A stretch of 64,000 bases of DNA from Candidatus Omnitrophica bacterium UBA6215 (GTDB taxonomy: Bacteria; Omnitrophota; Gorgyraeia; Pluralincolimonadales; Pluralincolimonadaceae): positions 209,278 to 273,277 of the forward strand of contig DISH01000007.1 in the NCBI GenBank assembly GCA_002421665.1, in the 5' to 3' direction. The position numbers and the translations under genes were made by a program. This document shows positions 1 through 14,706 of this stretch, one piece after another; the first letter of the stretch is position 1, and the number at the start of each line of letters is the position of its first letter. The notes under the pieces were generated by a model. That model had not been told where the DNA came from and searched no databases. It worked only from the letters and a program-made list of their open reading frames with translations.

Positions 1-741
1 CTCGCTGGCCTTAGCCGCCAAAGCATCCGCCACTTCCACCGGACAGCGCTTTGAGCCAATGCCGTGCAGATACATATTCATCGCGCACAACCGGGCCACG
101 GATTCTACGATATCCACGCCATACAAAGCCTCATTCACCATTAATTCCTTATCGCCTTTGGAGAGCGTAGGATTATTCTTTATCACATAATCAAAAGCAT
201 TCAGCAAAAACCCGCCGGTTCCGCAGGCAGGATCGCAAATCTTCATTCCCGGCTGGGGTTTCATTACTTCCACCATCGCCTTGATCAACGGCCGAGGAGT
301 AAAATACTGACCGGCGCCGCCTTTGGTATCCTGGGCATTCTTCTCCAACAATCCCTCATAAATCGTACCCTTGATATCAATATCCAGCCCCAGCCATTTC
401 TCGGCATCAATCATATTGATCAGTCGCTTCAGCTTAGCCGGGTCCTGGATTTTATTCTGGGACTTGCTGAAAATCCTGCCGATAATCCCGCGCTGTTTGC
501 TTAATTCCCGCAGCACCGTAATATAATGGCCTTCCAGCGGTTCGCCGTCCAGCTTCTTAAGCGACTTCCAACTATACTTGGCCGGGATCTCGCTGTCATG
601 CAACAACTCATCTCGCTCATCCGACATCTTCAGGAACAGCAAATACGTCAACTGCTCCACGTAATCGCCGTAACTTACGCCGTCATCCCGCAGCACATCG
701 CAGTAATTCCATACTTTTTGGACTATTTCATTTTCGCTCAT
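1..741 (-). CDS. hsdM: Type I R-M DNA methyltransferase subunit HsdM (N-terminal ~247 aa; gene runs off the window start)
   Basis: Minus-strand translation from the ATG at 739-741 reads MSENEIVQKVWNYCDVLRDDG...GQYFTPRPLIKAMVEV...ICDPACGTGGFL (HsdM N-domain plus SAM motif I). It is absent from the ORF track because it is open to the window edge. Confidence 0.85.
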   Translation of the reverse strand, partial: MSENEIVQKVWNYCDVLRDDGVSYGDYVEQLTYLLFLKMSDERDELLHDSEIPAKYSWKSLKKLDGEPLEGHYITVLRELSKQRGIIGRIFSKSQNKIQDPAKLKRLINMIDAEKWLGLDIDIKGTIYEGLLEKNAQDTKGGAGQYFTPRPLIKAMVEVMKPQPGMKICDPACGTGGFLLNAFDYVIKNNPTLSKGDKELMVNEALYGVDIVESVARLCAMNMYLHGIGSKRCPVEVADALAAKASE

Positions 742-760
742 AATTTATCCTCATAGAAGC

Positions 761-1774
761 TTAATCCTTCAATTGCGATAGAATAAAACATTTATTCTTA
801 AGAAAAGAAACAATCTTCTCATCTTTTTCGCCTCTAGTATAAATGTTTTTCCGAATTTCTTCATTGGGGCATACTCTATTCTCAAAATCGTAAATACTAC
901 TATTATCCGCTTCGTAGACGGTGGTATAAAATAGCTTATCTTGGATATTTTCTTGAAACACTTGATGCAAACCTAATCTTTCCATGTTAAGCGAATCAAA
1001 TCCAAATCCTAAAAAGAAAATATAGTCAGCTGCGGCTAAATATTGTTGAGCCTCTGTAAAAATAGCTTGCGTTCCATTAGAGGCATTAGGTCGAATGATC
1101 TCAACGTTTTTTGCAATCTCCCAAAACAAATGTGGCTTAGAAAAGTTAATAAGATTGTCTATTGCTCCATATGCTCTGCCGTCTTTTGTATATAAGTTAC
1201 CCACACTTCCATAAAAATGTAAGATTTTGATTTTATCTAGAAATTCCAAATACGTAGCTTGTTCTTTAGGGGTAGCAGAATGTATATAATTACGAACGTA
1301 ATAAGTTCTAGCAATATAATATTCTAGCGCAAGATCATAATTGAAAGTTATAAAACGAACTCTGCCGTTATGAAGTACTTTGTAATCATCATCTAAAAAA
1401 TTAAAAATGTGCCTATGCCAATTGTCATCAAAATTAAATACCAATCTTTGCCTATTACTTGCTTTTTCGGCAGATAAAATTGCATAGGTTATACCGGCAC
1501 GTCCTATTTTCTCAAAATCAATGGGTTGCTTTTCCTCTCTGGCTAAAACTCTTGCTAAAAAAGCATCGATACTATTTAATCCAGATTCTTCCAACCTATC
1601 AGAGAATATACCAATATCTCTACCCGAAATACCATATCCTTCCATAAATTTAATAAAGAGACTATCATGCTTATATCCAACGATTGTCTTTATTAATTCT
1701 GCACCTGTCGGATATCCAAAATCTTTGGATGCTCCTGCGCCTAAGACAAAAACAAACTTTTTATTATTCATCAT
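761..1774 (-). CDS. SIR2_2-family (sirtuin-like, predicted NAD+-consuming) protein, 337 aa
   Basis: Motifs FVFVLGAGAS, ITFNYDLALE, ILHFYGSVG and DYIFFLGFGFD match the SIR2_2 defence-type fold. Its start overlaps the stop of the upstream gene by 1 nt. It ends 19 bp before the hsdM start. Confidence 0.7.
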   Translation of the reverse strand: MMNNKKFVFVLGAGASKDFGYPTGAELIKTIVGYKHDSLFIKFMEGYGISGRDIGIFSDRLEESGLNSIDAFLARVLAREEKQPIDFEKIGRAGITYAILSAEKASNRQRLVFNFDDNWHRHIFNFLDDDYKVLHNGRVRFITFNYDLALEYYIARTYYVRNYIHSATPKEQATYLEFLDKIKILHFYGSVGNLYTKDGRAYGAIDNLINFSKPHLFWEIAKNVEIIRPNASNGTQAIFTEAQQYLAAADYIFFLGFGFDSLNMERLGLHQVFQENIQDKLFYTTVYEADNSSIYDFENRVCPNEEIRKNIYTRGEKDEKIVSFLKNKCFILSQLKD

Positions 1775-2616
1775 TAAATAGCCTCGTCCAAACGTCTTAA
1801 TAAATTACTAACAGCAAATAATCTCCCCAAAGCTTCTTGATGATCTATTTGTTTAATATCACCATGACTCAAAGAATTACGCCACCATTGCATAATCCCC
1901 ATAACGATATGCATAAATCCCTCTTGTTCGCATTGTTCAGTTTTATTGGATAAAGAATTCAATTTGATAAACGGGTGAGCTAAGTTAAAAACCTGCCCCA
2001 TCAAATCAATCCCCACAAGATTGCTTCCGCTTTTCTTCTGAACATAAGTTTCAAACTTCTCTAACGCCTTACGTACCGACTCATTAATATGCCCCTCCAG
2101 AAATAACTTCTGGCAATCCGGCATAAGTAGAGGATGTAAAGAAAACTTCTTTAGTATATCCTGAATCTCAAACGTCGGCGGGACAATGGTAGGCCTGGAT
2201 TTTGGCAAACTTAAGGCTAATATTTCTTTTCTAAGATCTATTCCTATCTTACATAGCTGCTTTGCGAATAATTCAGCCTCATCATACAGTATTGGATTGC
2301 CCTGTGAGTGTCTGCGCTCAATTGCTTGAGGCATTATTTCTCTAACAATAATCTTGATCGTCCTTGGTTTATCCTTATGTAGCTTGCGAATAAACTCAAC
2401 CAAAGCTTCTTTCTTTGAAGAACTCCCCTTAGATAGATACTTAGACAGTCCTCTTTTCTTGGCAATACTTACTATATTAAATCTGCTTTTATAGCCGGAA
2501 TAAGGCACAAGTTCGCCTAGCATTTCAGCCAATATACGGATATTCTGTATATCTACGGCTGAAAACCGTTTTACACACACCTTTTGTATTCTCTTCTTAT
2601 GTTTTCGCTTTTTCAT
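1774..2616 (-). CDS. HEPN-domain protein (Abi_C / TIGR02391-like C-terminus), 280 aa, basic N-terminus
   Basis: C-terminal block EGHINESVRKALEKFE...GIDLMGQVF...MQWWRNSLSHGD carries an Rx4H HEPN motif in an Abi_C-like context. N-terminus is Lys/Arg-rich (MKKRKHKKRIQK). Confidence 0.55.
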   Translation of the reverse strand: MKKRKHKKRIQKVCVKRFSAVDIQNIRILAEMLGELVPYSGYKSRFNIVSIAKKRGLSKYLSKGSSSKKEALVEFIRKLHKDKPRTIKIIVREIMPQAIERRHSQGNPILYDEAELFAKQLCKIGIDLRKEILALSLPKSRPTIVPPTFEIQDILKKFSLHPLLMPDCQKLFLEGHINESVRKALEKFETYVQKKSGSNLVGIDLMGQVFNLAHPFIKLNSLSNKTEQCEQEGFMHIVMGIMQWWRNSLSHGDIKQIDHQEALGRLFAVSNLLRRLDEAI

Positions 2617-2630
2617 TATTCCTTCAAACT

Positions 2631-3263
2631 CTATTCAATTTTCTTATCCAAAGAACGTAAAATTCTTGGACCTACATCTAATGCCCATAAAGCTGCATTA
2701 ACATCAACATCTTTTGCATGTACTGCACTATTGAGCAAACCGATTAGATCATCTAAGACACTTCTTTCCTCAATCGACAATAATTTATTATTTGCCAAGA
2801 CTACAAGTATCTGTTTTATCCCTCTCATAGGGATGTTTAACTGATGTTTTTCAGCAATATCGTTTAAACGTTTCTCAATTTCAATACGTAAGCCAGCCAA
2901 AGCGAGTTTAGGGTCTTCATTCGCGACTAACTGGAAAGAATATTTAGGAACTTTAGCGTTTGTAACAGTCTTACCAAGCAACCCTCCGGACTCTATCAAT
3001 CCTGCCTTCTCGGCTTCTCGAGTAACCTCCTGTAATTTTCGTAGCTCTACTTTCATCCCACCAGGGAATTCGATGGACTGAATTATCTCACGCAACCAAG
3101 GGATAAGAGCAATCACTATTAAAATTATAGTAATCGCATCCATTCTTAGATACCCCCAAAATGCATGCTCCACGGCCAAAATTAAAAAAATTACAGTTAC
3201 TAATATTTGTGCTCCTTTTTCTCTACAATAACTCCATATTGGAGATATCCAACGCTTGTTCAT
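2631..3263 (-). CDS. Hypothetical 2-TM membrane protein with cytoplasmic alpha-helical C-domain, 210 aa
   Basis: Two hydrophobic helices (ILVTVIFLILAVEHAFWGY / AITIILIVIALIPWL) precede a charged soluble domain. It overlaps the upstream gene by 4 nt (ATGA). No recognisable motif. Confidence 0.5.
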   Translation of the reverse strand: MNKRWISPIWSYCREKGAQILVTVIFLILAVEHAFWGYLRMDAITIILIVIALIPWLREIIQSIEFPGGMKVELRKLQEVTREAEKAGLIESGGLLGKTVTNAKVPKYSFQLVANEDPKLALAGLRIEIEKRLNDIAEKHQLNIPMRGIKQILVVLANNKLLSIEERSVLDDLIGLLNSAVHAKDVDVNAALWALDVGPRILRSLDKKIE

Positions 3264-4099
3264 AATACGTCACCCTCAATTATCTTAAACCCTCTTTTCT
3301 TGAGTTCCTCGGAAATTTCCTCCTTTAATTTAGGATTCTTTAACCGAGGGTCAATAATAACTCCATCCAAAAAATTCTGGAAATTATGCACAACTGGAAC
3401 GAGAGAAAACTCTTTCCCCATATCTAATTTACAGTTAGTTGCAATAAGTCTTATTTCATTCTCAAAATCAAAGCTACTTCTTTTTTCCAAATAACAACTG
3501 GCGATTGTTCTACTCTTGAAATAAGCCATCTGATCGGCCACGGTTCTTAAGAGGATGTCCATTCCATCATAATCAAAACTAGAATAATTAACTTCACCAG
3601 CCCAGAATGTTTCACTGTAATCTAGAACATCCTTACCGTTTTCTAAAGTTCGCATAATTTTATCAACGCTAGAAACCATCGCGACATTCCTATATTGTGG
3701 ATCTTTACCATACTCTTCCCACATTTTCTTTGATTGCTTCTTACTCCAACATTGGCAAAAAGTATCCTCAAAATACCTTTGCGTAACTATCAAGCCATCT
3801 GGCAGGATGACTTTTTTTCTTAAAATGATTGAATCTAATCGATCTCCGACAAGCCATTTCTTAGGATGACTAAAATATAAAACCTTGCCATCAACATTCG
3901 ATAAAAAATTATCTGATGTTTCTATTCTATAAACTGGGGAGAAACAATCTAGGGTTTCAGGAATAACATTCCTCGCATATGGTTTCCCATTGTATTCTTT
4001 TAGTTCCATGATTACTCTCTCAAGGCTATCCTTCAAGTGTTTTTCACCTTCTTTAGTGGACAAAAACTTACGCGCCTCATCAAAAATATCATTGTACAT
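3260..4099 (-). CDS. Hypothetical protein, 279 aa (no recognisable domain)
   Basis: Long AT-rich ORF, 17 bp downstream of hsdS on the same strand. It is translationally coupled to the 2-TM protein. Confidence 0.5.
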   Translation of the reverse strand: MYNDIFDEARKFLSTKEGEKHLKDSLERVIMELKEYNGKPYARNVIPETLDCFSPVYRIETSDNFLSNVDGKVLYFSHPKKWLVGDRLDSIILRKKVILPDGLIVTQRYFEDTFCQCWSKKQSKKMWEEYGKDPQYRNVAMVSSVDKIMRTLENGKDVLDYSETFWAGEVNYSSFDYDGMDILLRTVADQMAYFKSRTIASCYLEKRSSFDFENEIRLIATNCKLDMGKEFSLVPVVHNFQNFLDGVIIDPRLKNPKLKEEISEELKKRGFKIIEGDVL

Positions 4100-4116
4100 T
4101 TTTCAACCATTCCGCA

Positions 4117-5358
4117 TCAAAATTTAGCCTTTTCTTTCTTTATTCGCTCAAGCAAAACTTCTACCGGTTCATCAGCGGGATCAGGCTCAACCAGATTGCC
4201 TTCAAAAGCTTTCTTTAGAATACTCTGCTTTAGCTGCTCAATTTTATCCAAACCCTGAACCACTGCATCTTCAAGTATTTTTGCCCTCTCAAAATAGTCT
4301 TCTATAGCTTTCACTATTTGTAATTGTTCTTGAGAAGAACATAATGGGAACAAATACTGCAATAAATCATCCTTCCTTATTCCCTTAACAGTCGTTCCTG
4401 AAGTCTTAAACTTAACAGTACCGTAATAATAATAGAAGTAGTCAATATTAATTCTTTCTTTTAGAAAAAAGGCTCTTAAATCCTGGTTAATTGCCACAGC
4501 GATCTTATTAATTTGAATCTTCCCTACACTGATTCTAGTGCAAACAATTATGTTACCTGCAGGGATAAGATTAGTTGAACTACTTTCGACTGCTTTTTTT
4601 GTAATTCTATCAATGGTTGACTCTAAATATTTTCCTTCACTATTCATGTCTTTGACACTAGCCCAAGGGATATTTCCATTCCAATATTCCATATGATTCT
4701 TAGAAGGAGTCCCCCCACCTAAGTCTTTTGCTATTACATCAGCCAAAGTAACTCTACTAAAACTAATCCCAGGGGTTAATCTTCCTTCAAACGCCGATTT
4801 GAGCACTGACTGGCGATAGCGCTTGATTTCCTGCCGCACGCGCAGCAGCGAATCCTTGGCACTATCCAACCGCGAAAACAAACTTTCAATCTTGGCGACA
4901 ATGCGTTTTTGCTCAGAAAGAGAATATATCTCGATTGCAAGATCTTCGAGCTCCTTGGAAGGCACACGGAGCTGTCCTGCTGTCCCTGTCATCTTACTTC
5001 GTAAATATTTCCGAACCTTCTTTTGAATTAAGTAATAAAAACAGTACTTCGGATCGATAGCTTTGGCTAATCTTATAACGTGAAACTCAGTTGAACCGAA
5101 ACCAACACCATTTATCAAACCATTAACTAAAGCCAATTTACCATTTTCCATACAGGGAGTAATCTTCGCAAAAAGAATATCCCCATCCCTAAAAGAAGTA
5201 AACCTGCGTTTCCCTTCTTCGCTCTTAATTTTAGCAGATAAATCAACCATTCCCGTTTCAGCTTCTAGCGCCCTCATTGGTAGAAAACTGGCTATAAAAT
5301 TATTCTTAAGTTTATCTCTGGGATTAATAATTGCTATTTCTTTTATTTTTATTATCAT
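4117..5358 (-). CDS. hsdS: Type I R-M specificity subunit HsdS, 413 aa
   Basis: Central conserved block LSEQKRIVAKIESLFSRLDSA...LKSAFEGRLTP and C-terminal LKKAFEGNLV sit between two variable target-recognition regions. The conserved blocks are visibly GC-richer than the TRDs. Confidence 0.85.
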   Translation of the reverse strand: MIIKIKEIAIINPRDKLKNNFIASFLPMRALEAETGMVDLSAKIKSEEGKRRFTSFRDGDILFAKITPCMENGKLALVNGLINGVGFGSTEFHVIRLAKAIDPKYCFYYLIQKKVRKYLRSKMTGTAGQLRVPSKELEDLAIEIYSLSEQKRIVAKIESLFSRLDSAKDSLLRVRQEIKRYRQSVLKSAFEGRLTPGISFSRVTLADVIAKDLGGGTPSKNHMEYWNGNIPWASVKDMNSEGKYLESTIDRITKKAVESSSTNLIPAGNIIVCTRISVGKIQINKIAVAINQDLRAFFLKERINIDYFYYYYGTVKFKTSGTTVKGIRKDDLLQYLFPLCSSQEQLQIVKAIEDYFERAKILEDAVVQGLDKIEQLKQSILKKAFEGNLVEPDPADEPVEVLLERIKKEKAKF

Positions 5359-5564
5359 TCTATTTCTCTAACTGAGCTCCTGCCAATAGTTAACAAAACA
5401 AGGTTACATACGCAATATTTCTATCTCCAAAAATAAAAAAAGCCCCCAAGAATAACCCTTGCTCTCCTGAGAGATTCGAAAGCAATAAGCCTGCTCGATC
5501 TCTTCAAAAGCCTTCTTCTCTTTCTTCAATGAGATTTATTCTGCTTAAATGCGTATTATACATA

Positions 5565-6668
5565 CTATTCCCCTATTATTAAGACCTCGTACAACCCATG
5601 TCCATTTCGATGATTAAGCTTATACTTATACTTTTTTCTGAAGATGCGAACCTTTGGCTTGTACTTCAACATAAGTTTCTTAATCTTATAGATAGACGGA
5701 TATCCAGGCTGCCCATATGACAGAACTATTATTGAGTCCTTAAACTTATTGAATAAAGCGTCAAGATTATCCTCTATTTTTCCTTCATTCCAATGATTCT
5801 TTTGCTTAACCAGTCTCTTATTCTTTGTTTTTAAATCTATATTCTTGGGCCAATTGTCATAATCGACTATTCCGTCAAGGAAATGATATAGTTCGCGATA
5901 ATCTTTTGGCATTTTTTCGTCTGCTCTGGCATATGGAGGGTCAAAATAAACAAGATCAAATTTTCTGTTCTCTATGTCCAAAATATCCTGGGAAATGGCT
6001 TTATGCGTGGAACCATTTGAGAATACTTTGCTTGAAACTTCTTCATTAAAACGCTTCATCAACTTAGTAAAACAAGTATTCCATGTTATCTTATTGCCAA
6101 AACTACGCTCAATATTTTTAGCAGTTCTAAGCGAAAGATTTTTTCTATGAAAGAGGTTGAAAGGTCTTTTGCATAAACAGGACTGAAATAGTAAATGATA
6201 AGCCAAAGCCTGTTTCTTGGCCAAAACATCACCTTTATATCTTTCTGAGAGCATCTTTATGTTTAGTGCCATCACATCTAATAATCTGTTCTCCTCAGAA
6301 GTATAGTACACTCCTTTAAATGTATCCTCAATATAACTTGGATATTTGAAACCGTTTCGGTGAAATACAAATTCCAGATCGGCTTCATCTAAAGTAATTG
6401 AGTCATTCTCAATTAAAGCTACTCCCGTCATGCGATTAGACGGAAGAATATCGTTAAACGTCACTTTCTTATTCATCAATTTGAATAAATAACTAACACT
6501 GCCTGTGCCACCAAACCCATCGAGAACAGTTTTAAACTGCAGAGATTTTAGATTATCATGTATCCACGGCAATATGCTTCTCTTGCTACCTTGATACCTA
6601 GTAGTAGGAACTCTATGCAGGATATCCACTGGTCCTGCGATTATCTTTTCTTCCAGTTTTTTAATCAC
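5565..6668 (-). CDS. Dam-family (alpha-class, D12) N6-adenine DNA methyltransferase, 367 aa
   Basis: N-terminal FxGxG (DGFGGTGSVS) followed later by DPPY (LVYFDPPYA), which is the alpha-class motif order. It overlaps the upstream ORF by 4 nt. Confidence 0.7.
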   Translation of the reverse strand: MIKKLEEKIIAGPVDILHRVPTTRYQGSKRSILPWIHDNLKSLQFKTVLDGFGGTGSVSYLFKLMNKKVTFNDILPSNRMTGVALIENDSITLDEADLEFVFHRNGFKYPSYIEDTFKGVYYTSEENRLLDVMALNIKMLSERYKGDVLAKKQALAYHLLFQSCLCKRPFNLFHRKNLSLRTAKNIERSFGNKITWNTCFTKLMKRFNEEVSSKVFSNGSTHKAISQDILDIENRKFDLVYFDPPYARADEKMPKDYRELYHFLDGIVDYDNWPKNIDLKTKNKRLVKQKNHWNEGKIEDNLDALFNKFKDSIIVLSYGQPGYPSIYKIKKLMLKYKPKVRIFRKKYKYKLNHRNGHGLYEVLIIGE

Positions 6669-7429
6669 ACTCTTCCCCTGATTATCAAACCCAAAGATTG
6701 TTTTAATGCTCTTTTATATGTTGCATCCCCTATCACTTTAAGGACTTTTCTTTGGTTCACTACGCCTAGTGATTTAAAATCCTCGGATAATCCCAGTGCG
6801 AGTACAGTATTAACATATTTTTGGACATCTTTAAACCTACTGAGCCATTTGCCAAATTCTGCTTTTTTGTATGCTGGCGCTACGCCTTGAATTGTAGTCT
6901 GAAAAGAAGAAAAATTGCTGTGTACATATTTTGATAGCGTTGTATACATAGCACGTACTTTATCAAAAAGCTCTCCTCCTGCCTTACCTTTAAAGTTATT
7001 AACATCATCCAGATGCATAAAATAATCATAATTATCTCCCCAAACATGCTTTCCTTTAAAAAAAGCCTTATCATCTTTCCACCACTTCAGCTCTATAGGA
7101 TGCGATGAAAAATATACCAACCTCAAGACGGTTTCCAACTCCGCCCTTAAAGAAACGTGGGCTTGCTTATACAATGACATGCATGCAAAATAAATGGACA
7201 TGTAAGAATCCATAAACGTTTCTTTAATTAAATCTCTGGCTGAGGTGCCATACTTGCGTTCTAGAGTGTTTCTCCAAGTATCAAAGATGCTAACCATTAC
7301 TAATAGTTTTTCTATTTCGCGATGATTAGCCTTGAGAGTATCTTCCCAATTATTTTTACTCAAACGTTGCTGGCTGTCATACATAATCTTTGTTAACTTA
7401 GGCAACCTCTCGGCTTTGAATGTCTTCAT
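6665..7429 (-). CDS. Hypothetical protein, 254 aa (possible nuclease/effector partner of the MTase-ATPase cassette)
   Basis: ORF tightly packed between the 242-aa gene (2-bp gap) and the MTase (4-nt overlap). No recognisable motif. Confidence 0.45.
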   Translation of the reverse strand: MKTFKAERLPKLTKIMYDSQQRLSKNNWEDTLKANHREIEKLLVMVSIFDTWRNTLERKYGTSARDLIKETFMDSYMSIYFACMSLYKQAHVSLRAELETVLRLVYFSSHPIELKWWKDDKAFFKGKHVWGDNYDYFMHLDDVNNFKGKAGGELFDKVRAMYTTLSKYVHSNFSSFQTTIQGVAPAYKKAEFGKWLSRFKDVQKYVNTVLALGLSEDFKSLGVVNQRKVLKVIGDATYKRALKQSLGLIIRGRV

Positions 7430-7431
7430 TT

Positions 7432-8160
7432 TTACCTCACAAGAATAACAGCTAGTGAATAAAGCTGTTGTTGTGTATTGATATCTTTGCTTAAACTTGA
7501 GATTTTAAATATATTATACTTGTATTTTTGGCATAACAATTCGGCGACCTTCTTAATCAAATCCATTTTCTGCGTATTACTAGAAATTGTTGGAGGGAAA
7601 GCATCCAGGGCCAACCCTCCCCACCCACTAGATTGCATAGCATCAGAAACCCTTTTAACATTATCTCGAGAGATGTCTTCGGAATTAACAACTGTAGTTT
7701 GTAATAATACGAATCCTTTACTGCGTTTCTGCCCTTGTAAAACAATAAAACTCTCAACTTTCTCCAATTCCTTTTCAATCCTGGAGTTATTAACATATAT
7801 ATCTTGGGAAGAAAAATCAAGGTTCAGAATATCACATGGGAAAAGGGGATTAAGTTGACAGGTAGCCGTCGAGATAAGTTCATCGCATATAGAGCCATTC
7901 AAAACTACCCCTAACGCCTCCGTCTCTGCCCTAACAGCTTTGATCATATTGCTGACCCATAAAACACAATCTCCTCTTTGCACCAAATTATTATCTTCTA
8001 ATCGAGATATCTCTTTAAAATTAATTCCATCAGTCAAAGTAAAAAGCTTCATCTGTTTATTCTTTCTACGACTATTATAAAATCTGGCGCCTCCTTCTCT
8101 TGCCATAGGAAGCCAGAGTTCTTCTATCAATTGGTCTCTTAGGGTATCAATTTCTGCCAT
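7432..8160 (-). CDS. Hypothetical protein, 242 aa
   Basis: ORF 4 bp downstream of the GHKL ATPase gene. No recognisable motif. Confidence 0.45.
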   Translation of the reverse strand: MAEIDTLRDQLIEELWLPMAREGGARFYNSRRKNKQMKLFTLTDGINFKEISRLEDNNLVQRGDCVLWVSNMIKAVRAETEALGVVLNGSICDELISTATCQLNPLFPCDILNLDFSSQDIYVNNSRIEKELEKVESFIVLQGQKRSKGFVLLQTTVVNSEDISRDNVKRVSDAMQSSGWGGLALDAFPPTISSNTQKMDLIKKVAELLCQKYKYNIFKISSLSKDINTQQQLYSLAVILVR

Positions 8161-8164
8161 GTCA

Positions 8165-9838
8165 TTACCCTTTGAATACAGTCTCTATCAGATGATTCAA
8201 TTCACTTAGTAATTTTTCTTCGTCTTTCCTATCCTTAGCAATTAAGAGGAACCCCAAAGCGATCTTCTTGATAACGTCTTCGCTGATTTTGCTTTTGAAA
8301 AGTGGGTGTGAGGAATTAAAGGCCACCTTCTTCCCGGAACTATCCAGCTTACAGATAGAATAATGGCTTTTCTTGTAATCCCAGTCATCATAAGTCACAG
8401 AGAATTTCTTGTCGTCTATCTCAATACTCTCGACAAACTCAGGGTGATTGTCATAAATGACAATCGATTTTTCTTTTGGCTTAACTTCGACCGGCTGCTG
8501 TTTATCTTTGGGCTCTTCTTTTCTTGATATAATCTTAAACTGAGTTTTATCTGTTAATGCTTTCTTGATTGTCTCTAGGGTAGAGGTGATCCTTTCTCTG
8601 GATTTTTTTACCATCGGCTCTTTAGAAAGCCTTAATCTTTCTTTCGAGAAATGGAGTATATTTGCTTTTTTAAGCTCCTCAATTAATGGCTCAGAGTCTT
8701 TTAATGGCATTAAGGCTTGATAAATGTCCTTGTCTTGTACAGCCCATTTTTCTTGTACATCGCTCCACTTAGTGAGTTTTTTCCGGAAGAAATCCTGCAT
8801 CTCAGAAACTTCCTGCGTATAAGAAAAGCTGTCTCTGTCAATCATCAAGAAAGAATCCAGTCCGTCCAAGACACAAACTTCTCCGGAAATATAATTTAAT
8901 TTACCTGGCACTTTACCAGTAAGCTTGGAGACCTCAAAATCTGTCGGAAGGCCAACTGCAACATCCCTCAATCTTACCTGCAGCCCTCTCGCCTCTTCAG
9001 GCTCGACTGGCTTTTTCGCAGTGGTAATAACGTATTTTAGATGCACATTTCCGAATTTTTCTTCGCCCTTATCAAGAATCTCTATATTTTCGGGAACATT
9101 TCTGAAAAGTTCTTTTCCGTCGAGCCATAACCTCATTGGTACTCTTTCTGCATCGGCAAAGAAACTCCGCAATATTCTCTGTTCAGGTGAAAACTGTATT
9201 GGAGAATACTGACTTATTGTCCATTTGAATTTCTCAAAACCGCTAAATTTATCTATACTAGACCATCCAGAACCACTCTTTTGACGTAGCTCCTTGATGA
9301 GGTGTTGCTTTATGCCTTTTAACGATATGATAGTCTCTCCATCTTTCTTGGCTAAATCGCTCTTATGAACAGTGCATTTCGCCTTTTCTTTTTCGATATC
9401 AGAAGGAGTGCCGGTAAAGAAACGCTGTGTCTCAATCGTCAACTCAATAAGATCATCACTATCCATTTTTTTAGTAATCACATGGACTGTATTACAATAA
9501 GGAAAGACCGAAAGGCAACCGATACCAAAAGTGCCGATTCGTTTTCTTCCCAGCTCATCCAACTTGTCGGAAGGCTGTGTAACATAGCCTATCGTAAGAA
9601 ACTTTTTCTCAATATCCTCTAGGCTCATACCGCGACCATTATCTCTGACTATTATTTCTCCCCTATCAAGATCCAACTTTATTTTTACTTCAGTTGCGCC
9701 GGCATCATAAGAGTTTGATATAAGCTCTTTGATTGCTCGTGCAAAGTTACGATATAATCCCAAACTCAAATGACTTACTACTTCTTTGTTAACCTTAAAG
9801 GGTAATTCTACCTGTTTAGTTTGATTATCTATTTTCAT
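8165..9838 (-). CDS. GHKL-superfamily ATPase (HATPase_c_3, MORC/Hsp90/MutL-like Bergerat fold), ~557 aa
   Basis: N-box ELISNSYDAGA, G1 box RDNGRGMS and G2 box GTFGIGCLS. An AGGAGG sits 7 nt before the ATG at 9838 (the ORF track begins 2 codons earlier at a TTG). It begins 38 bp after the hsdR stop. Confidence 0.7.
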   Translation of the reverse strand: MKIDNQTKQVELPFKVNKEVVSHLSLGLYRNFARAIKELISNSYDAGATEVKIKLDLDRGEIIVRDNGRGMSLEDIEKKFLTIGYVTQPSDKLDELGRKRIGTFGIGCLSVFPYCNTVHVITKKMDSDDLIELTIETQRFFTGTPSDIEKEKAKCTVHKSDLAKKDGETIISLKGIKQHLIKELRQKSGSGWSSIDKFSGFEKFKWTISQYSPIQFSPEQRILRSFFADAERVPMRLWLDGKELFRNVPENIEILDKGEEKFGNVHLKYVITTAKKPVEPEEARGLQVRLRDVAVGLPTDFEVSKLTGKVPGKLNYISGEVCVLDGLDSFLMIDRDSFSYTQEVSEMQDFFRKKLTKWSDVQEKWAVQDKDIYQALMPLKDSEPLIEELKKANILHFSKERLRLSKEPMVKKSRERITSTLETIKKALTDKTQFKIISRKEEPKDKQQPVEVKPKEKSIVIYDNHPEFVESIEIDDKKFSVTYDDWDYKKSHYSICKLDSSGKKVAFNSSHPLFKSKISEDVIKKIALGFLLIAKDRKDEEKLLSELNHLIETVFKG

Positions 9839-9881
9839 GGTCAAACCTCCTATTCAATTTACTCTTCGGAAGAAAAATAAT

Positions 9882-12557
9882 CTATACCAACACACTATTC
9901 AACTCCTCCATAACATCATCCAGCCTATCCCCAAAAACTTCTTTCGCCTTAATAATCCCGCCGCTGCCGCTAAAGGGCGGCAGGAGGAAGTCTTTTTTAT
10001 CCACACTGCCGGAGCCGGCGATGTGCTCGGCAATCATAGTCAACCACTGAATCTGCCGGCCGGTGAAAGTTTTACCCAAAAACTGTTGATCTTTCAACCA
10101 TTCTTGGAAACGATGTTCCACATGCTCTTTAAACGGCTCCAGGACTTCTTCTTTGCGGACGGCAAAACGCACCAAAGAGATAATGTCGGTTAATTGGGTT
10201 TGCACGGAGAAGCCGCGCACTTTGGATTTTTCCAGTTGTTCGTATGCCTGCCAGAGGGCATCGGTGGTAAAGCCGTAAGGCGGCATTTCGATTTTTTCGG
10301 CTAAGTCGCGGATCTCTTCATAGGTAATATGGCGTTTTTTGTAGGGCAGGTTATAGATGATCTGCAGGGCAGTGATCTTATCTTTATTTTCTGCGACGAA
10401 CTGCTCGAACTTCTTGACCAGGGATAAAGCTTTTTCTTTGGCCTGTTGGTCAAAGCCGGATCTGATGATTTTATCTACGGTAGTAGTGTCAATGGTCTGT
10501 TCGGCCTTGGTTTGTAACGCCGTAAGCAGTTGGCGAAAATCCGGATTATCAAAGGGCGCGCAGGCTTGGTCCCGGTCAGGAGCGGTATCCGGATCGATAA
10601 CGGACATAAGATCGTTGGTAATGTCGGTTAAGGACTTGCCGCCGGATGCTTCTTTAATCCGCTGAATGTCTCTCTCCTCTAATTCCAGGTTCAGGCGCGC
10701 TAAACGCGAAGCCAGGCTGGAAAGTGTATCATTATCCCGGATGCCGATGGCTACGTTGTTGAGTAATTTAGGCGTAGGAACGCTTTTCTGGCGGTCAAGG
10801 GTAGTGGTCTGGCTCTTCTCGCTTTCGCAGACGCCAACGGCATCCACGATCACAAAATGAGTTTTGGCTCTGGCGTCGGAGGTTACCGCGTGCAAATCAT
10901 CCGGATCAATCACCCGGGTGCCGCGGCCTTTCATCTGCTCGAAATAGACCGCGGATTTGACGTCACGCATAAATAAGATACATTCCAGGGGCTTGATGTC
11001 GGTGCCGGTTGAGATCATATCCACGGTTACGGCAATCCGGGGATTGAAGCTATTGCGAAAGGCGGCGATCAGGTCATCGGTGTTTTCTTGGGTGCGGTAG
11101 GTTATTTTCTTGCAGAAATCATTGCCTTTACCGAATTCTTCGCGCACGATACCGGTGATGTCCTCGGCATGGCTATCGTCTTTGGCGAAAATCAGGGTTT
11201 TCGGGACTTCACTGCGTCCGGGAAAGATTTCCGTAAAGAGTTTATCCTTAAACTCGCGGGTAACCGTGCGGATCTGATCTTTAACCACAATACTACGGTC
11301 AAGCTGATCCGGAGTGTAATCTAAATCCTCGTCCAGCTTTTCCCAGCGAAGTTTGCGAGTAAGTTTGTCGCGTTTGTCCACGTAAAAACCGGAAAGGATC
11401 TTGCCCCCTTTTTCCGTAGTCTCGGTGCGAATGCGGTAAACATCAAAACCGACGTTGACCTTATCCGCCACTGCCCGATTGTGGTCGTATTCCATCACCA
11501 GGTTCTTGTTAAAGAAACCGATGGTCTGATTAGACGGGGTGGCAGTAAGGCCGATGATAAAGGAATCAAAGTATTCCAGGACCTGGCGCCAGAGATTGTA
11601 AATGGAGCGGTGGCATTCGTCCACGATGATGAAGTCAAAGGTTTCAATGGGGATCTTGCCCCGGAATTTGATCGCCTGGGGGTCGATGTCAAGCGCAGAT
11701 GATTCATAAAGGGACTTCTCTTCCAAACTGGCGTCCAGTTCCTGGTCGCCTTTAAGCATGGAGAAAAGGCGCTGGATGGTGGTAATGCAAACCTTGGCGT
11801 CCTGGTCAAAGACGTTGGTGGCCATATGCTGGACAATATAGAGATCGGTGAAACAGCGGTTGTCGTCAAAAGGGATATAGCTCTGGAATTCTTTTTTGAC
11901 CTGCCGGCCCAGAGAACAGCGATCAACCAAGAAGAGAATACGGCGGGCCTTGGCGAATTTGATCAGGCGGTAGATTTCGCTGATGGCGGTGTAGGTTTTG
12001 CCACTGCCGGTAGCCATTTGCAGAAGCGCGCGCGGACGGCTGTCATGTAAAGATACTTCCAGATTCTTGACCGCCTCGATCTGGCACTGGCGCAGGTTAT
12101 AGGGATCTAATGGCGGTAATTCGCGCAGGCGCCGGCGCAGGGTTTGCGGATCCTGGACCCATTCGGCTAAAGTTGCCGGGCTGTGAAAAGCAAAAACCCG
12201 GCGGGAACAAGGATCCGGATCACGCTGACTGCGAAAAAAGGTCTCAATACCGGTAGATTCGTAGGCAAACGGCAGAACATCGTCAATATGCGGCAGGTTT
12301 TCAGGGATTGAGGCATTGTAGCGGGCGGTTTGTTCAGCCACGCCGGAAAGCGTGGTGCCTTCGGTTTTGGCTTCCACGGTGCCGACGGCTTTACGATCCA
12401 CAAAAAGCAAATAATCGGCCGGGCCGGATTTAGTGGGAAACTCCCGGACAGCTACTCCCCTGCCGGCGGAAAGATTAATCTTACGGACATCCTGGATAAT
12501 CCATCCGGCTTCTTTTAATAAATCATCGATAACTTTACGTGCCTCTGCTTCGCTCAT
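9882..12557 (-). CDS. hsdR: Type I restriction enzyme R subunit HsdR, 891 aa
   Basis: N-terminus MSEAEARKVIDDLLKEAGW...PADYLLF matches the HsdR_N nuclease domain. Downstream are SF2 helicase motifs (GSGKT, DECHRS). GC is host-like. Confidence 0.85.
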   Translation of the reverse strand: MSEAEARKVIDDLLKEAGWIIQDVRKINLSAGRGVAVREFPTKSGPADYLLFVDRKAVGTVEAKTEGTTLSGVAEQTARYNASIPENLPHIDDVLPFAYESTGIETFFRSQRDPDPCSRRVFAFHSPATLAEWVQDPQTLRRRLRELPPLDPYNLRQCQIEAVKNLEVSLHDSRPRALLQMATGSGKTYTAISEIYRLIKFAKARRILFLVDRCSLGRQVKKEFQSYIPFDDNRCFTDLYIVQHMATNVFDQDAKVCITTIQRLFSMLKGDQELDASLEEKSLYESSALDIDPQAIKFRGKIPIETFDFIIVDECHRSIYNLWRQVLEYFDSFIIGLTATPSNQTIGFFNKNLVMEYDHNRAVADKVNVGFDVYRIRTETTEKGGKILSGFYVDKRDKLTRKLRWEKLDEDLDYTPDQLDRSIVVKDQIRTVTREFKDKLFTEIFPGRSEVPKTLIFAKDDSHAEDITGIVREEFGKGNDFCKKITYRTQENTDDLIAAFRNSFNPRIAVTVDMISTGTDIKPLECILFMRDVKSAVYFEQMKGRGTRVIDPDDLHAVTSDARAKTHFVIVDAVGVCESEKSQTTTLDRQKSVPTPKLLNNVAIGIRDNDTLSSLASRLARLNLELEERDIQRIKEASGGKSLTDITNDLMSVIDPDTAPDRDQACAPFDNPDFRQLLTALQTKAEQTIDTTTVDKIIRSGFDQQAKEKALSLVKKFEQFVAENKDKITALQIIYNLPYKKRHITYEEIRDLAEKIEMPPYGFTTDALWQAYEQLEKSKVRGFSVQTQLTDIISLVRFAVRKEEVLEPFKEHVEHRFQEWLKDQQFLGKTFTGRQIQWLTMIAEHIAGSGSVDKKDFLLPPFSGSGGIIKAKEVFGDRLDDVMEELNSVLV

Positions 12558-12568
12558 ACAACCTCTAT

Positions 12569-13258
12569 TCAGTTATCTGAAAAACTATAGTAATCAGCCC
12601 CGCCTACGATTATATGGTCGAGAACCTCGATTCCCAGTAAATCTGCGGCGGCGGATAAGTCTTCGGTAAATTTCTTGTCTTGAGCGCTCGGTGCAGCGTT
12701 GCCGCTTGGGTGGTTGTGAACGCAAACGATAGATTTGGCGAATTTTTGCAATGCGGCGTGAATTATTTCGCGAACAATAGGAAATGCCTTATCGACCGTG
12801 CCGACGGCCGTATCCGAAATATCGATTATGCGGTTGTTGTTGTCGAGATACACCACCTTGAAAACTTCAGTCTTAAGATCGCGGAGTTGGGGCATTATTA
12901 TATCTACGACATCTTTGGCGGAGGCGACCTTTTGTTTGCCGGTGGACACATCGTCCTGACGATAGCGCCGCCCGATTTCAAGCGCGGCTTGAATATGGGC
13001 AATCTTGGCCCCGCCTAAACCTTTGAATTCTTTCCAATCTCTTGTATCTGTGTGAGCCATGCTCCGAAACGAGCCGAATTTCTTGAGGATAGCTCGGGCG
13101 AGGTCTATCGCGCTGGTCCCCTTTGTGCCTGTGCGAAGAAGAATTGCCAGAAGCTCCGAATCGCTCAAAGCCCCCGCCCCCTTCTTGAGCAGCTTCTCGC
13201 GCGGCCTGTCGTCTATGGGCCAGCTTTTGATACCGGTTATTCGATTCGTTTTTTTCAT
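12569..13258 (-). CDS. radC: RadC-family JAB/MPN domain protein, 229 aa
   Basis: HNHPSGNAAPSAQD JAMM motif plus an N-terminal HhH region. It ends 11 bp before hsdR. Confidence 0.8.
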   Translation of the reverse strand: MKKTNRITGIKSWPIDDRPREKLLKKGAGALSDSELLAILLRTGTKGTSAIDLARAILKKFGSFRSMAHTDTRDWKEFKGLGGAKIAHIQAALEIGRRYRQDDVSTGKQKVASAKDVVDIIMPQLRDLKTEVFKVVYLDNNNRIIDISDTAVGTVDKAFPIVREIIHAALQKFAKSIVCVHNHPSGNAAPSAQDKKFTEDLSAAADLLGIEVLDHIIVGGADYYSFSDN

Positions 13259-13266
13259 ATTTATTG

Positions 13267-14706
13267 CTAGAAGAACAAGAGAAATATCGACAATGGAATG
13301 AACAGCAGCTTCTTTTCGTCTTGCGTCTTAACGAAATCTTTTGTCACAACAATTCCAAATTTCTGATCAAAAGCGTTAACAAAATACTTGATTGACGCCA
13401 GATCGTCCATCGCATCTCTATATTTGACTTCGACCGGCAGATACCGCTTGCCGCCTACATGAACTACAAAATCGACCTCGCGTTTCGCGTCCTTATAGTA
13501 AGACAGCTCTATTGCTCCCTCGAATTGCCGCAAGGCGTTAAATACGAGATTTTCGGCATAAAATCCCATGGCTGAGGGGTCGCTTAAAACGCTTTCGTTC
13601 AGTTTCAAGATAGCGTTTCGCAGCGCTAAATCAAGAAGATAGCATTTCACGCTACCCCGCCTGAACTTAAGCGGCCTTTTTGAGAATCGAGGTAGCGTTT
13701 TTACGAGATCTGTCATTTCCAAAAGCGGCAAATATTTTTCAAGCATCGGCCTGCTGACGCCAACCTTCTGAGAGGCCTTTTCTATATTAATCTCTTGTCC
13801 GGGCTGTTCGATAAGCGACAAATAGTAACTCTTTATTTTCTCCGGCTTCCGGAACTCCGTAGCTATAATCAAATCCTCGAAAATCACCTTTTGTACCTGA
13901 TTATCGAAAAGGTATTCCTGCTTGGCAACAATATCTTCTATTTCCCAGGACTCCGGGAATCCTCCTTCGATAAAATATCTATTCAACTGAATGTTTAATT
14001 CGCGAAAGACGTTCCCCGGAACGTTCAATGGACCGGATTCCGATTGAAATTCCTTCCAATCAACGGCCATTTCTCTTTGAAGTTTATATCCGAAAGCCTG
14101 AGCGCGTTTTACGAAATCAAGGACCTCGCTATCGCCCGCTTTATGAAAATAAACGAATTCCTTGAAAGAAAACGGCAATATATGATTATCTTTTATCCTT
14201 CCTAATAGACTCTCTCGGCTTTTACGGAATATCGGCGATGAGGCGGAACCGGATATGACAAATCTTACAGGAAACCCGAGGTCATAGTATTTCTTCAGAT
14301 ACAGCTCCCAGCGGTCAAAACGCTGAACTTCATCCAGAAAAAAATAAACCGTTTCGCTTTTACGCGTAATATCGGCCCACTTTATCATCTCATCGAAGAA
14401 ATGTTCGCGCATCTGTGGTTCCGACAAAAGTGGATCATCGAAAGAAAAATAGACAATTTGATTGGGCTTGGCATGACCGTCATTAATCAGTGATTGGATA
14501 ATTTGTTTAAGGAGGGTTGTCTTTCCGACTCGACGCGGTCCTGTAATCGAAATGATTTGTTTCAGTGATAAGAGGTCTTTGTAGATTTTATGAAAGACGG
14601 GTCTTTTAAAAACCTCGGTTTTAACTACGCCTTCTTTCCACCAATGGTTATATGGAGTTAATATCGCCTCTATCTGAACGCCGTCAAATTCGCCTCTTCT
14701 CACCAA
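13267..14706 (-). CDS. AAA+ ATPase with DUF4143 C-terminal domain (AAA_14 family), 479 aa
   Basis: Walker A ITGPRRVGKTTLL and Walker B FFLDEVQ. Overall architecture is typical of the DUF4143 ATPase family. Confidence 0.7.
   Translation of the reverse strand: MVRRGEFDGVQIEAILTPYNHWWKEGVVKTEVFKRPVFHKIYKDLLSLKQIISITGPRRVGKTTLLKQIIQSLINDGHAKPNQIVYFSFDDPLLSEPQMREHFFDEMIKWADITRKSETVYFFLDEVQRFDRWELYLKKYYDLGFPVRFVISGSASSPIFRKSRESLLGRIKDNHILPFSFKEFVYFHKAGDSEVLDFVKRAQAFGYKLQREMAVDWKEFQSESGPLNVPGNVFRELNIQLNRYFIEGGFPESWEIEDIVAKQEYLFDNQVQKVIFEDLIIATEFRKPEKIKSYYLSLIEQPGQEINIEKASQKVGVSRPMLEKYLPLLEMTDLVKTLPRFSKRPLKFRRGSVKCYLLDLALRNAILKLNESVLSDPSAMGFYAENLVFNALRQFEGAIELSYYKDAKREVDFVVHVGGKRYLPVEVKYRDAMDDLASIKYFVNAFDQKFGIVVTKDFVKTQDEKKLLFIPLSIFLLFF

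Follow-up and report, generated by a model that had tools for sequence, protein, structure and literature searches.

The window analysed here is a 64,000-nucleotide stretch of the genome of Candidatus Omnitrophica bacterium UBA6215 (contig DISH01000007.1, positions 209,278 to 273,277). Close to its beginning, two adjacent genes for proteins of 279 and 210 amino acids (aa), designated A279 and B210, are embedded in a type I restriction-modification (R-M) operon. They start 17 nt after the stop codon of hsdS and overlap each other by 4 nt (ATGA), in agreement with the pair outlined by the original prediction. Both have many homologues and are therefore genuine genes, not chance open reading frames (ORFs). 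A scan for promoters and terminators returned terminator-like sites at chance level, none of them between A279 and B210.

Every gene from approximately position 741 to 12557 is carried by the minus strand, in the order hsdR, the four genes of a first cargo slot (slot 1), hsdS, A279, B210, a Hypoth_Ymh gene (Ymh280), a gene for a SIR2-like protein and hsdM (Table 1). B210 is separated from the start of Ymh280 by 14 nt, and Ymh280 overlaps the SIR2-like gene by 1 nt. The PADLOC model PD-Lambda-3_B matches Ymh280 as well (1.4e-10). The guanine-cytosine (GC) content is approximately 0.50 in hsdR and hsdM, 0.33-0.37 from hsdS through the four genes that follow it, and 0.33-0.42 over the entire interval between hsdR and hsdM. 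As the GC content drops between hsdR and hsdM, the operon (hsdR ... hsdS ... hsdM) is split by two AT-rich cargo slots.

Table 1. Features of the split R-M operon, with A279 and B210 first. Positions are counted from the first nucleotide of the window.
Feature	Position	Strand	Evidence or remark
A279 (279 aa, DUF2971-family, predicted DarT-like ADP-ribosyltransferase fold)	3260..4099	-	Pfam, PADLOC, Foldseek
R58, putative ART motif I	3926..3928	-	predicted strand 55-61; invariant in close family, at least 90% of 56 distant relatives
C117-W118-S119 (in QCWS), putative ART motif II, CxS type	3743..3751	-	predicted strand 114-119
E213-N-E215, putative ART motif III (ExE)	3455..3463	-	start of predicted strand 215-220
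ATGA stop/start overlap of A279 and B210	3260..3263	-	TGA of A279 shared with ATG of B210
GAGGGTGA, Shine-Dalgarno-like sequence for B210	3270..3277	-	within the end of A279, 6 nt upstream of the B210 ATG
B210 (210-aa inner-membrane protein, two-TM hairpin and predicted cytoplasmic DUF4145-type HEPN domain)	2631..3263	-	hydropathy, model, conservation
TM hairpin of B210, residues 19-62 with H33, D42, P55-W56	3078..3209	-	hydropathy, model, conservation
HEPN-like helical domain of B210, residues 105-210	2634..2951	-	DUF4145 match of family member P0055; Foldseek HepT
N178-S-A-V-H182 of B210, HEPN R(N)xxxH remnant	2718..2732	-	Arg position is L177
hsdS, upstream edge of the cargo slot	4117..5358	-	Methylase_S 8e-28; PADLOC Specificity_I 4e-92
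Ymh280 (Hypoth_Ymh HEPN protein, 280 aa, canonical RNSLSH motif)	1774..2616	-	Pfam 3.8e-25
SIR2-like protein, 337 aa	761..1774	-	between Ymh280 and hsdM
hsdM, 5' part, downstream edge of the cargo slot	1..741	-	translation starts MSENEIVQKVWNYCDVLRDDG; gene leaves the window
Slot 1 (between hsdR and hsdS), four genes	5565..9844	-	GHKL ATPase, two unknown proteins, D12-class methyltransferase
hsdR	9882..12557	-	ResIII and EcoEI_R_C domains

The 279-residue protein

A279 has no hydrophobic transmembrane (TM) segment according to Kyte-Doolittle hydropathy. It had been described as a protein without a recognizable domain, a view that no longer holds. Pfam DUF2971 (PF11185) reaches 23.0 bits, for a gathering cut-off of 22, with the profile aligned from 1 to 89 of 89 at residues 126-218. 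The PADLOC model PDC-S31 scores 90.8 bits (2e-26; profile positions 15-225 of 245), and A279 corresponds to this candidate in being a single, R-M-embedded gene (between hsdS and hsdM) that is matched by the E-value of the hidden Markov model. A profile search through 1.84 billion cluster representatives retrieved 1868 relatives at E <= 1e-3; the best 150 of these 1868 are approximately 150-360 aa long, each with essentially one matched stretch. DUF2971 is matched by 37 of 56 sampled relatives (best 2e-10), and distant plasmid homologues carry the same annotation. A search of phage genomes gave no relative, and a metagenome scan yielded one locus only, already present in the set.

The AlphaFold2 model (predicted local distance difference test, pLDDT, 77; predicted template modelling score, pTM, 0.74) was compared with the PDB by Foldseek. 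The eight top-ranking entries are all DarT (best E = 1.1e-4, probability 1.0; five at E <= 3.3e-4), followed by the tRNA 2'-phosphotransferases Tpt1/KptA and then by PARP1. A sequence search of the PDB with the A279 family gave nothing significant.

The conserved residues R58, C117-x-S119 and E213-x-E215 are placed by sequence and model on predicted strands of the kind that usually bear motifs I, II and III of ADP-ribosyltransferases (ARTs); both the motif assignment and a catalytic role of these residues are putative. Among the same 56 relatives, whose mean identity is approximately 22%, W118, E215 and R217 are invariant, and Q116, C117 and E213 are kept in at least 90%. A CxS variant of motif II is known in a related ART family, and DUF2971 itself has been classed as a DarT/AbiGi-like ART family (PMC12522546). 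Since the DUF2971 and PDC-S31 matches, the DarT-like fold, the conserved residues and the literature agree, A279 is a new member of the known, largely untested candidate family DUF2971/PDC-S31.

The 210-residue membrane protein

Exactly two hydrophobic segments are found in B210 by Kyte-Doolittle hydropathy, at approximately residues 19-37 and 43-62. The AlphaFold2 model (pLDDT 81) places helices at 6-36 and 43-63 ahead of a helical bundle, so that both analyses agree with the two N-terminal TM helices and helical domain proposed originally. Because of the basic N-terminal residues and the short loop, the topology is probably N-in/C-in, which would place the helical domain in the cytoplasm.

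The family comprises 585 homologues (E <= 1e-3) with identities of 32-52%, mostly above 40% and typically approximately 50%, from many bacterial phyla and one archaeon. The hairpin is highly conserved: H33 in TM1 (179/193 members), D42 in the very short loop (189/193) and P55-W56 in TM2 (191/193 and 190/193). Further invariant features are E65-x-P-G-G-x-K71 and R126-x-E128-x-E130, the latter in the first long helix of the HEPN-like domain (R126 and E128, 191/193 each). Most family ORFs are 190-215 aa long. Longer ones measure approximately 311 aa in L036, L050, L051, L054 and L072, and 327-353 aa in L045, L047 and L080; the excess of approximately 100-150 aa may be due either to an additional domain or to a start codon called too far upstream.

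B210 itself matches no Pfam, NCBIfam or PADLOC model (DUF4145 and PADLOC-DB searched at E <= 1). Its relatives, together with the fold, bear out the suspected HEPN/DUF4145 character of the C-terminal domain: at E <= 1, 10 of 30 family members match DUF4145 (PF13643; best 5.5e-5), and one of them, P0055, lies above the cut-off (23.6 vs. 23.1 bits; profile 4-86 of 88, spanning the whole C-domain). In the matching members that were inspected, the alignment likewise extends over the full profile and has the same location. HEPN_Swt1 and HepT-like models are each matched by 9 of the 30. In Foldseek, PDB ranks 1-19 are HepT/HEPN toxins, with a probability of up to 0.99, and lower ranks include the other HEPN-fold entries 1wol and Csm6 (5fsh). 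The PDB sequence search with the family gave nothing significant.

The LLNSAVHAKD segment, residues 176-185, contains N178 (185/193) and H182 (189/193). Position 177, where a canonical motif has its arginine, is occupied by Leu in 182 of the 193 members and by Arg in none, just as a clean Rx4-6H had been denied from the single sequence. In the hhalign comparison of the B210 family with Ymh280, LLNSAVH lined up with wRNSLSH, without reaching significance. By sequence and model, B210 is thus best placed on a divergent sister branch of the DUF4145-type HEPN domains, with Asn and His kept and the motif Arg absent. Its branch of membrane-associated DUF4145-type HEPN proteins is uncatalogued and offers more novelty than A279.

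Partners or independent cargo

The preferred reading, with a probability of roughly 0.6, is that A279 and B210 are two independent single-gene toxin or defence cargo modules in the AT-rich, variable slot between hsdS and hsdM. They are adjacent only in the window and in the loci L087, L083 and L093/L094, always with the same ATGA overlap; identity to the window proteins is 73-90% for A279 and 78-86% for B210. The neighbourhood check therefore did not sustain the two-gene unit proposed originally, co-location being confined to four closely related orthologous R-M loci. Across the related loci, hsdR and hsdM are 85-97% identical (89-97% between the hsdM of the window and the HsdM_N/N6_Mtase genes of L087, L093 and L083), and the cargo differs from locus to locus, with a GC content of 0.30-0.38 vs. 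0.44-0.51 for the scaffold. In a fifth locus, L095, a 508-aa fused AAA_21+DUF4435 gene (L095:4014-5540), PARIS-like in its resemblance to a merged AriA/AriB, occupies the exact position of A279; the locus still has B210 (80% identity) and Ymh (89%). B210 and Ymh are syntenic in all five related loci, 14-15 nt apart. As each of the two genes is also found without the other and A279 is swapped in L095, they are separable in both directions.

On the A279 side, four homologues lack B210. The one of L081 (74% identity) is followed by a 52-aa ORF and is not in an R-M context. The homologue of L104 (49%) adjoins a probable tRNA gene. The one of L084-86 (42%) precedes genes for a lipoprotein-like and a multi-TM protein, with a type III R-M system adjacent. 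The homologue of L102 (39%) is followed by a gene whose N-terminus contains a zinc-deaminase-like motif, as read by eye. A distant DUF2971 homologue (25-27% identity) is present on 189 plasmids, 178 of them from Klebsiella. In the two Klebsiella plasmids inspected (L099:4019-5451 and L100:3944-5373), an EcsC-family gene starts 27-30 nt after the DUF2971 gene; the EcsC-family protein has a hydrophobic core, and its hhalign comparison with the B210 family was not significant. The 27%-identical homologue of a Phenylobacterium plasmid is monocistronic, with a convergent gene downstream. Membrane-associated proteins of unrelated families often follow A279 relatives (L084, Klebsiella, the window), a tendency that is not statistically significant.

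On the B210 side, strict patterns run against 185,579 species genomes gave 117 confirmed relatives, a very patchy distribution; 80 loci were fetched, and the family gene was called in 73. BLAST clustering of approximately 540 neighbours from these 73 loci gave no cluster with A279 and no conserved partner, and Pfam found no DUF2971 among the 57 close same-strand neighbours. The latter are mostly housekeeping genes, e.g., rpoC, trpA, ffh, aroC and rpsL; DUF4145, AbiJ, Abi_C, Ymh or D12 methyltransferase (MTase) genes make up the smaller part. Few PADLOC matches occur among the 139 genes within two positions of a homologue, and type I MTase models account for two only. B210 relatives are absent from 72,556 plasmids, and one was found in viral contigs. 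In L096 (528-6908), a 57%-identical homologue belongs to a series of small, closely spaced ORFs on one strand, with an rve_3 integrase gene and an Mrr restriction gene nearby, a setting that is cassette-array- or defence-islet-like. A dedicated system of A279 and B210 is not supported, their co-occurrence in unrelated genomes being found neither in the 73 loci nor at L081, L084, L102 and L104 nor on plasmids.

As independent cargo, A279 and B210 would be co-transcribed, and the ATGA overlap would reflect tight operon packing, not an obligate partnership. For both proteins, we infer the enzymatic activity, the trigger and the defence role. By analogy with Aristaios and DarT, A279 may carry out NAD+-dependent ADP-ribosylation during infection. 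Its target would be a nucleic acid, a protein or some other essential molecule, and the modification could arrest either the cell or the phage and so lead to abortive infection. B210 would be anchored in the inner membrane by its N-in/C-in hairpin with a very short outer loop. The hairpin, with its invariant His, Asp and Pro-Trp, might sense a perturbation of the membrane or envelope and gate an RNA-cleaving or RNA-binding activity of the HEPN domain at the membrane. Of the two proteins, A279 is a plausible candidate for a defence role and B210 a weaker one, its family having little association with defence islands.

Several observations weigh against independent cargo. The ATGA overlap and the gene order are kept even where A279 has diverged to 73% identity, which could indicate selection for co-expression. 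The loci with the adjacent pair are orthologous and, because of their common R-M scaffold, are essentially one evolutionary observation, for or against. The membrane-associated proteins that follow several A279 relatives, in L084 and on the Klebsiella plasmids, might represent a recurrent partnership. No neutralising partner was identified for A279, although DarT and other ART toxins normally require one. With defence islands scarce around the B210 family, a defence role of B210 has weak support. Finally, one of five AlphaFold2 models of A279 was confident, and the best E-value of the HEPN matches of B210 in Foldseek is only 1.4e-2.

The ATGA overlap with the Shine-Dalgarno-like sequence within A279, kept in the four loci, the unrelated membrane proteins after A279 homologues in L084 and on the Klebsiella plasmids, and the usual presence of cognate neutralisers for ART toxins would suit a lineage-specific two-gene system, e.g., an ART toxin controlled in its activity or localisation by a membrane HEPN protein as antitoxin, trigger or second effector, like DarT-DarG or AbiGi-AbiGii. 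Such a system is unlikely, however: DUF2971 is never beside a B210-family gene in the 73 other genomes, B210 is missing next to all four A279 homologues of 39-74% identity, and L095 exchanges A279 for the PARIS-like gene and keeps B210. Moreover, Aristaios and PDC-S31 are single-gene, and B210 contains no macrodomain or other known ADP-ribose-removing domain. The constant 14-15 nt adjacency in the five related loci, including L095 without A279, would instead point to B210 and Ymh as the functional unit, e.g., a heteromeric HEPN nuclease whose canonical RNxxxH comes from Ymh, with A279 as unrelated cargo. HEPN nucleases act as dimers, and Ymh carries the Arg missing from B210. Nevertheless, this unit is very unlikely, as the five loci share one orthologous scaffold, so that the synteny is not independent, and among the 28 genes closely downstream of B210 homologues in other genomes, only one encodes a Hypoth_Ymh protein; the 1-nt overlap with the SIR2-like gene suggests a different pairing for Ymh.

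Other readings concern B210 alone. It had been likened to SLATT-like membrane-disrupting modules; as a pore-forming or membrane-disrupting abortive-infection effector, its helical C-domain would be regulatory or a sensor, not a nuclease. Membrane-disrupting two-TM effectors are common in defence systems, the hairpin has the conserved polar residues H33 and D42, and the catalytic Arg of HEPN is absent. There is little probability in this reading: SLATT_1 (E = 0.17), SLATT_6 (E = 0.058) and DUF4231 each match one of 30 members, at E = 0.06-0.17, the C-domain is DUF4145/HepT-like with near-invariant, active-site-like N178, H182, R126 and E128, and the Pfam and PADLOC scans showed no SMODS, SLOG or cyclase signalling gene nearby. 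It is likewise doubtful that the B210 family is an accessory stress or membrane RNA-turnover factor without a part in defence, which hitch-hiked into the cargo slot. The predominance of housekeeping neighbours and the few PADLOC matches, the unusually good conservation across bacterial phyla and an archaeon, and the absence from plasmids and near absence from viral contigs argue for such a factor, as do the long upstream gaps of many copies, which imply a promoter of their own. Against it stand the patchy distribution under strict patterns, the defence or mobile genes surrounding it both in the window lineage and in L096, and the DUF4145, AbiJ, Abi_C or D12 MTase neighbours in some genomes. 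These four readings each have less support than independent cargo modules. A more speculative proposal, which is quite unlikely, makes the B210 family a self-contained, horizontally mobile sensor-effector of membrane perturbation: the hairpin would read the state of the inner membrane, responding, e.g., to a collapsing proton-motive force or to the entry of phage DNA, and would switch on a non-canonical HEPN site (N178/H182 with R126/E128). In this lineage, the protein would also have become the partner of a DarT-like ART in one operon.

The slots also hold other cargo. In the window, the GHKL ATPase of slot 1 (559 aa) has an N-terminus like that of the BbrUII/HgiDII restriction enzymes (NCBIfam, 9e-30), the two unknown proteins measure 242 and 254 aa, and the methyltransferase is of the D12-class adenine type; slot 1 may be a separate embedded modification-dependent system. 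Slot 1 of L087 carries ThsB_TIR and TIR_2 genes, and the 504-aa hsdS product of the same locus (L087:8483-9997) has a GIY-YIG nuclease domain besides Methylase_S. In L083 and L093, the gene after Ymh encodes an AbiGi-like (ART-type) protein of approximately 190 aa, not a SIR2-like one, and the cargo slot of L093 includes an AAA_14/DUF4143 gene. Directly upstream of hsdR in the window (12569-14706, minus strand) lie genes for a RadC-family JAB protein (229 aa) and an AAA_14/DUF4143 ATPase (479 aa).

The locus is an example of "guilt by embedding", in which one conserved type I R-M scaffold carries differing AT-rich cargo in two slots and a DarT-like ART gene and a PARIS-like gene share one position in orthologous loci. 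PDC-S31, an untested candidate, gains a predicted enzymatic fold and candidate catalytic residues from sequence and model. The compact TM-HEPN family (~195 aa), which is unusually conserved, without the canonical HEPN arginine and not covered by any Pfam or PADLOC model, is small enough for easy tests of toxicity, RNA cleavage and the exclusion of phages or plasmids. This family and the cargo-swapping R-M scaffold are the most useful leads.

Comparison with known systems

PDC candidates are defined by their embedding in R-M, BREX or DISARM systems (bioRxiv 10.1101/2024.01.29.577857). A279 matches both the PDC-S31 and the DUF2971 profiles and, like the PDC set, sits in a type I R-M operon. It differs from most relatives as a divergent branch, at most approximately 30% identical to them, and by an N-terminal helical hairpin of approximately 40 residues that is absent from many members, whose matches begin at approximately profile position 30-40. 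A literature search found no experimental validation of PDC-S31. For DUF2971, Aristaios is a single-gene antiphage protein of 316 aa from the Lactococcus plasmid pUCCL641_199, with a predicted ART fold and an abortive-infection phenotype (PMC11381338). It is like A279 in its DUF2971 domain and predicted ART fold, a likeness of family and description, not of sequence alignment, and it differs in context, a lactococcal plasmid vs. an R-M-embedded chromosomal slot.

The best structural matches of A279 are DarT of the DarTG system (PDB 7OMV-7OMY, 7YK3 and 8BAQ; E = 1e-4 over approximately 240 aligned columns). The identity is 11-14% only, with template modelling scores of 0.31-0.36, and motif II of A279 is of the CxS type. 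As for the macrodomain partner DarG, no macrodomain match was found in B210, Ymh280 or hsdS.

For B210, the best fold matches of the C-domain are HepT/MntA-type HEPN toxins (PDB 7BXO, 5YEP and 7AE8; probability 0.99). HepT toxins are soluble, carry the canonical Rx4-6H and are neutralised by an MNT nucleotidyltransferase, whereas B210 is membrane-anchored and has neither the Arg nor an MNT neighbour. Anantharaman et al. 2013 (Biol Direct 8:15) predicted membrane-associated proteins in which an N-terminal TM module bearing a strictly conserved Trp/Pro signature is joined to a DUF4145-like HEPN domain, predicted to be cytoplasmic; stimulus-dependent RNA degradation at the membrane was proposed for them. 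B210 has the invariant P55-W56 in TM2 and the DUF4145-like C-domain. Compared by description only, the published proteins have a single TM helix with "WP", and B210 has two with "PW"; the motif Arg, conserved in approximately 80% of DUF4145 members, is absent from B210. B210 probably belongs to this TM-DUF4145 family or to a sister family. The HEPN-TM immune system of phage-inducible chromosomal islands, mentioned as broadly protective in PMC12948488, is like B210 by description in that each is one protein combining HEPN and TM elements.

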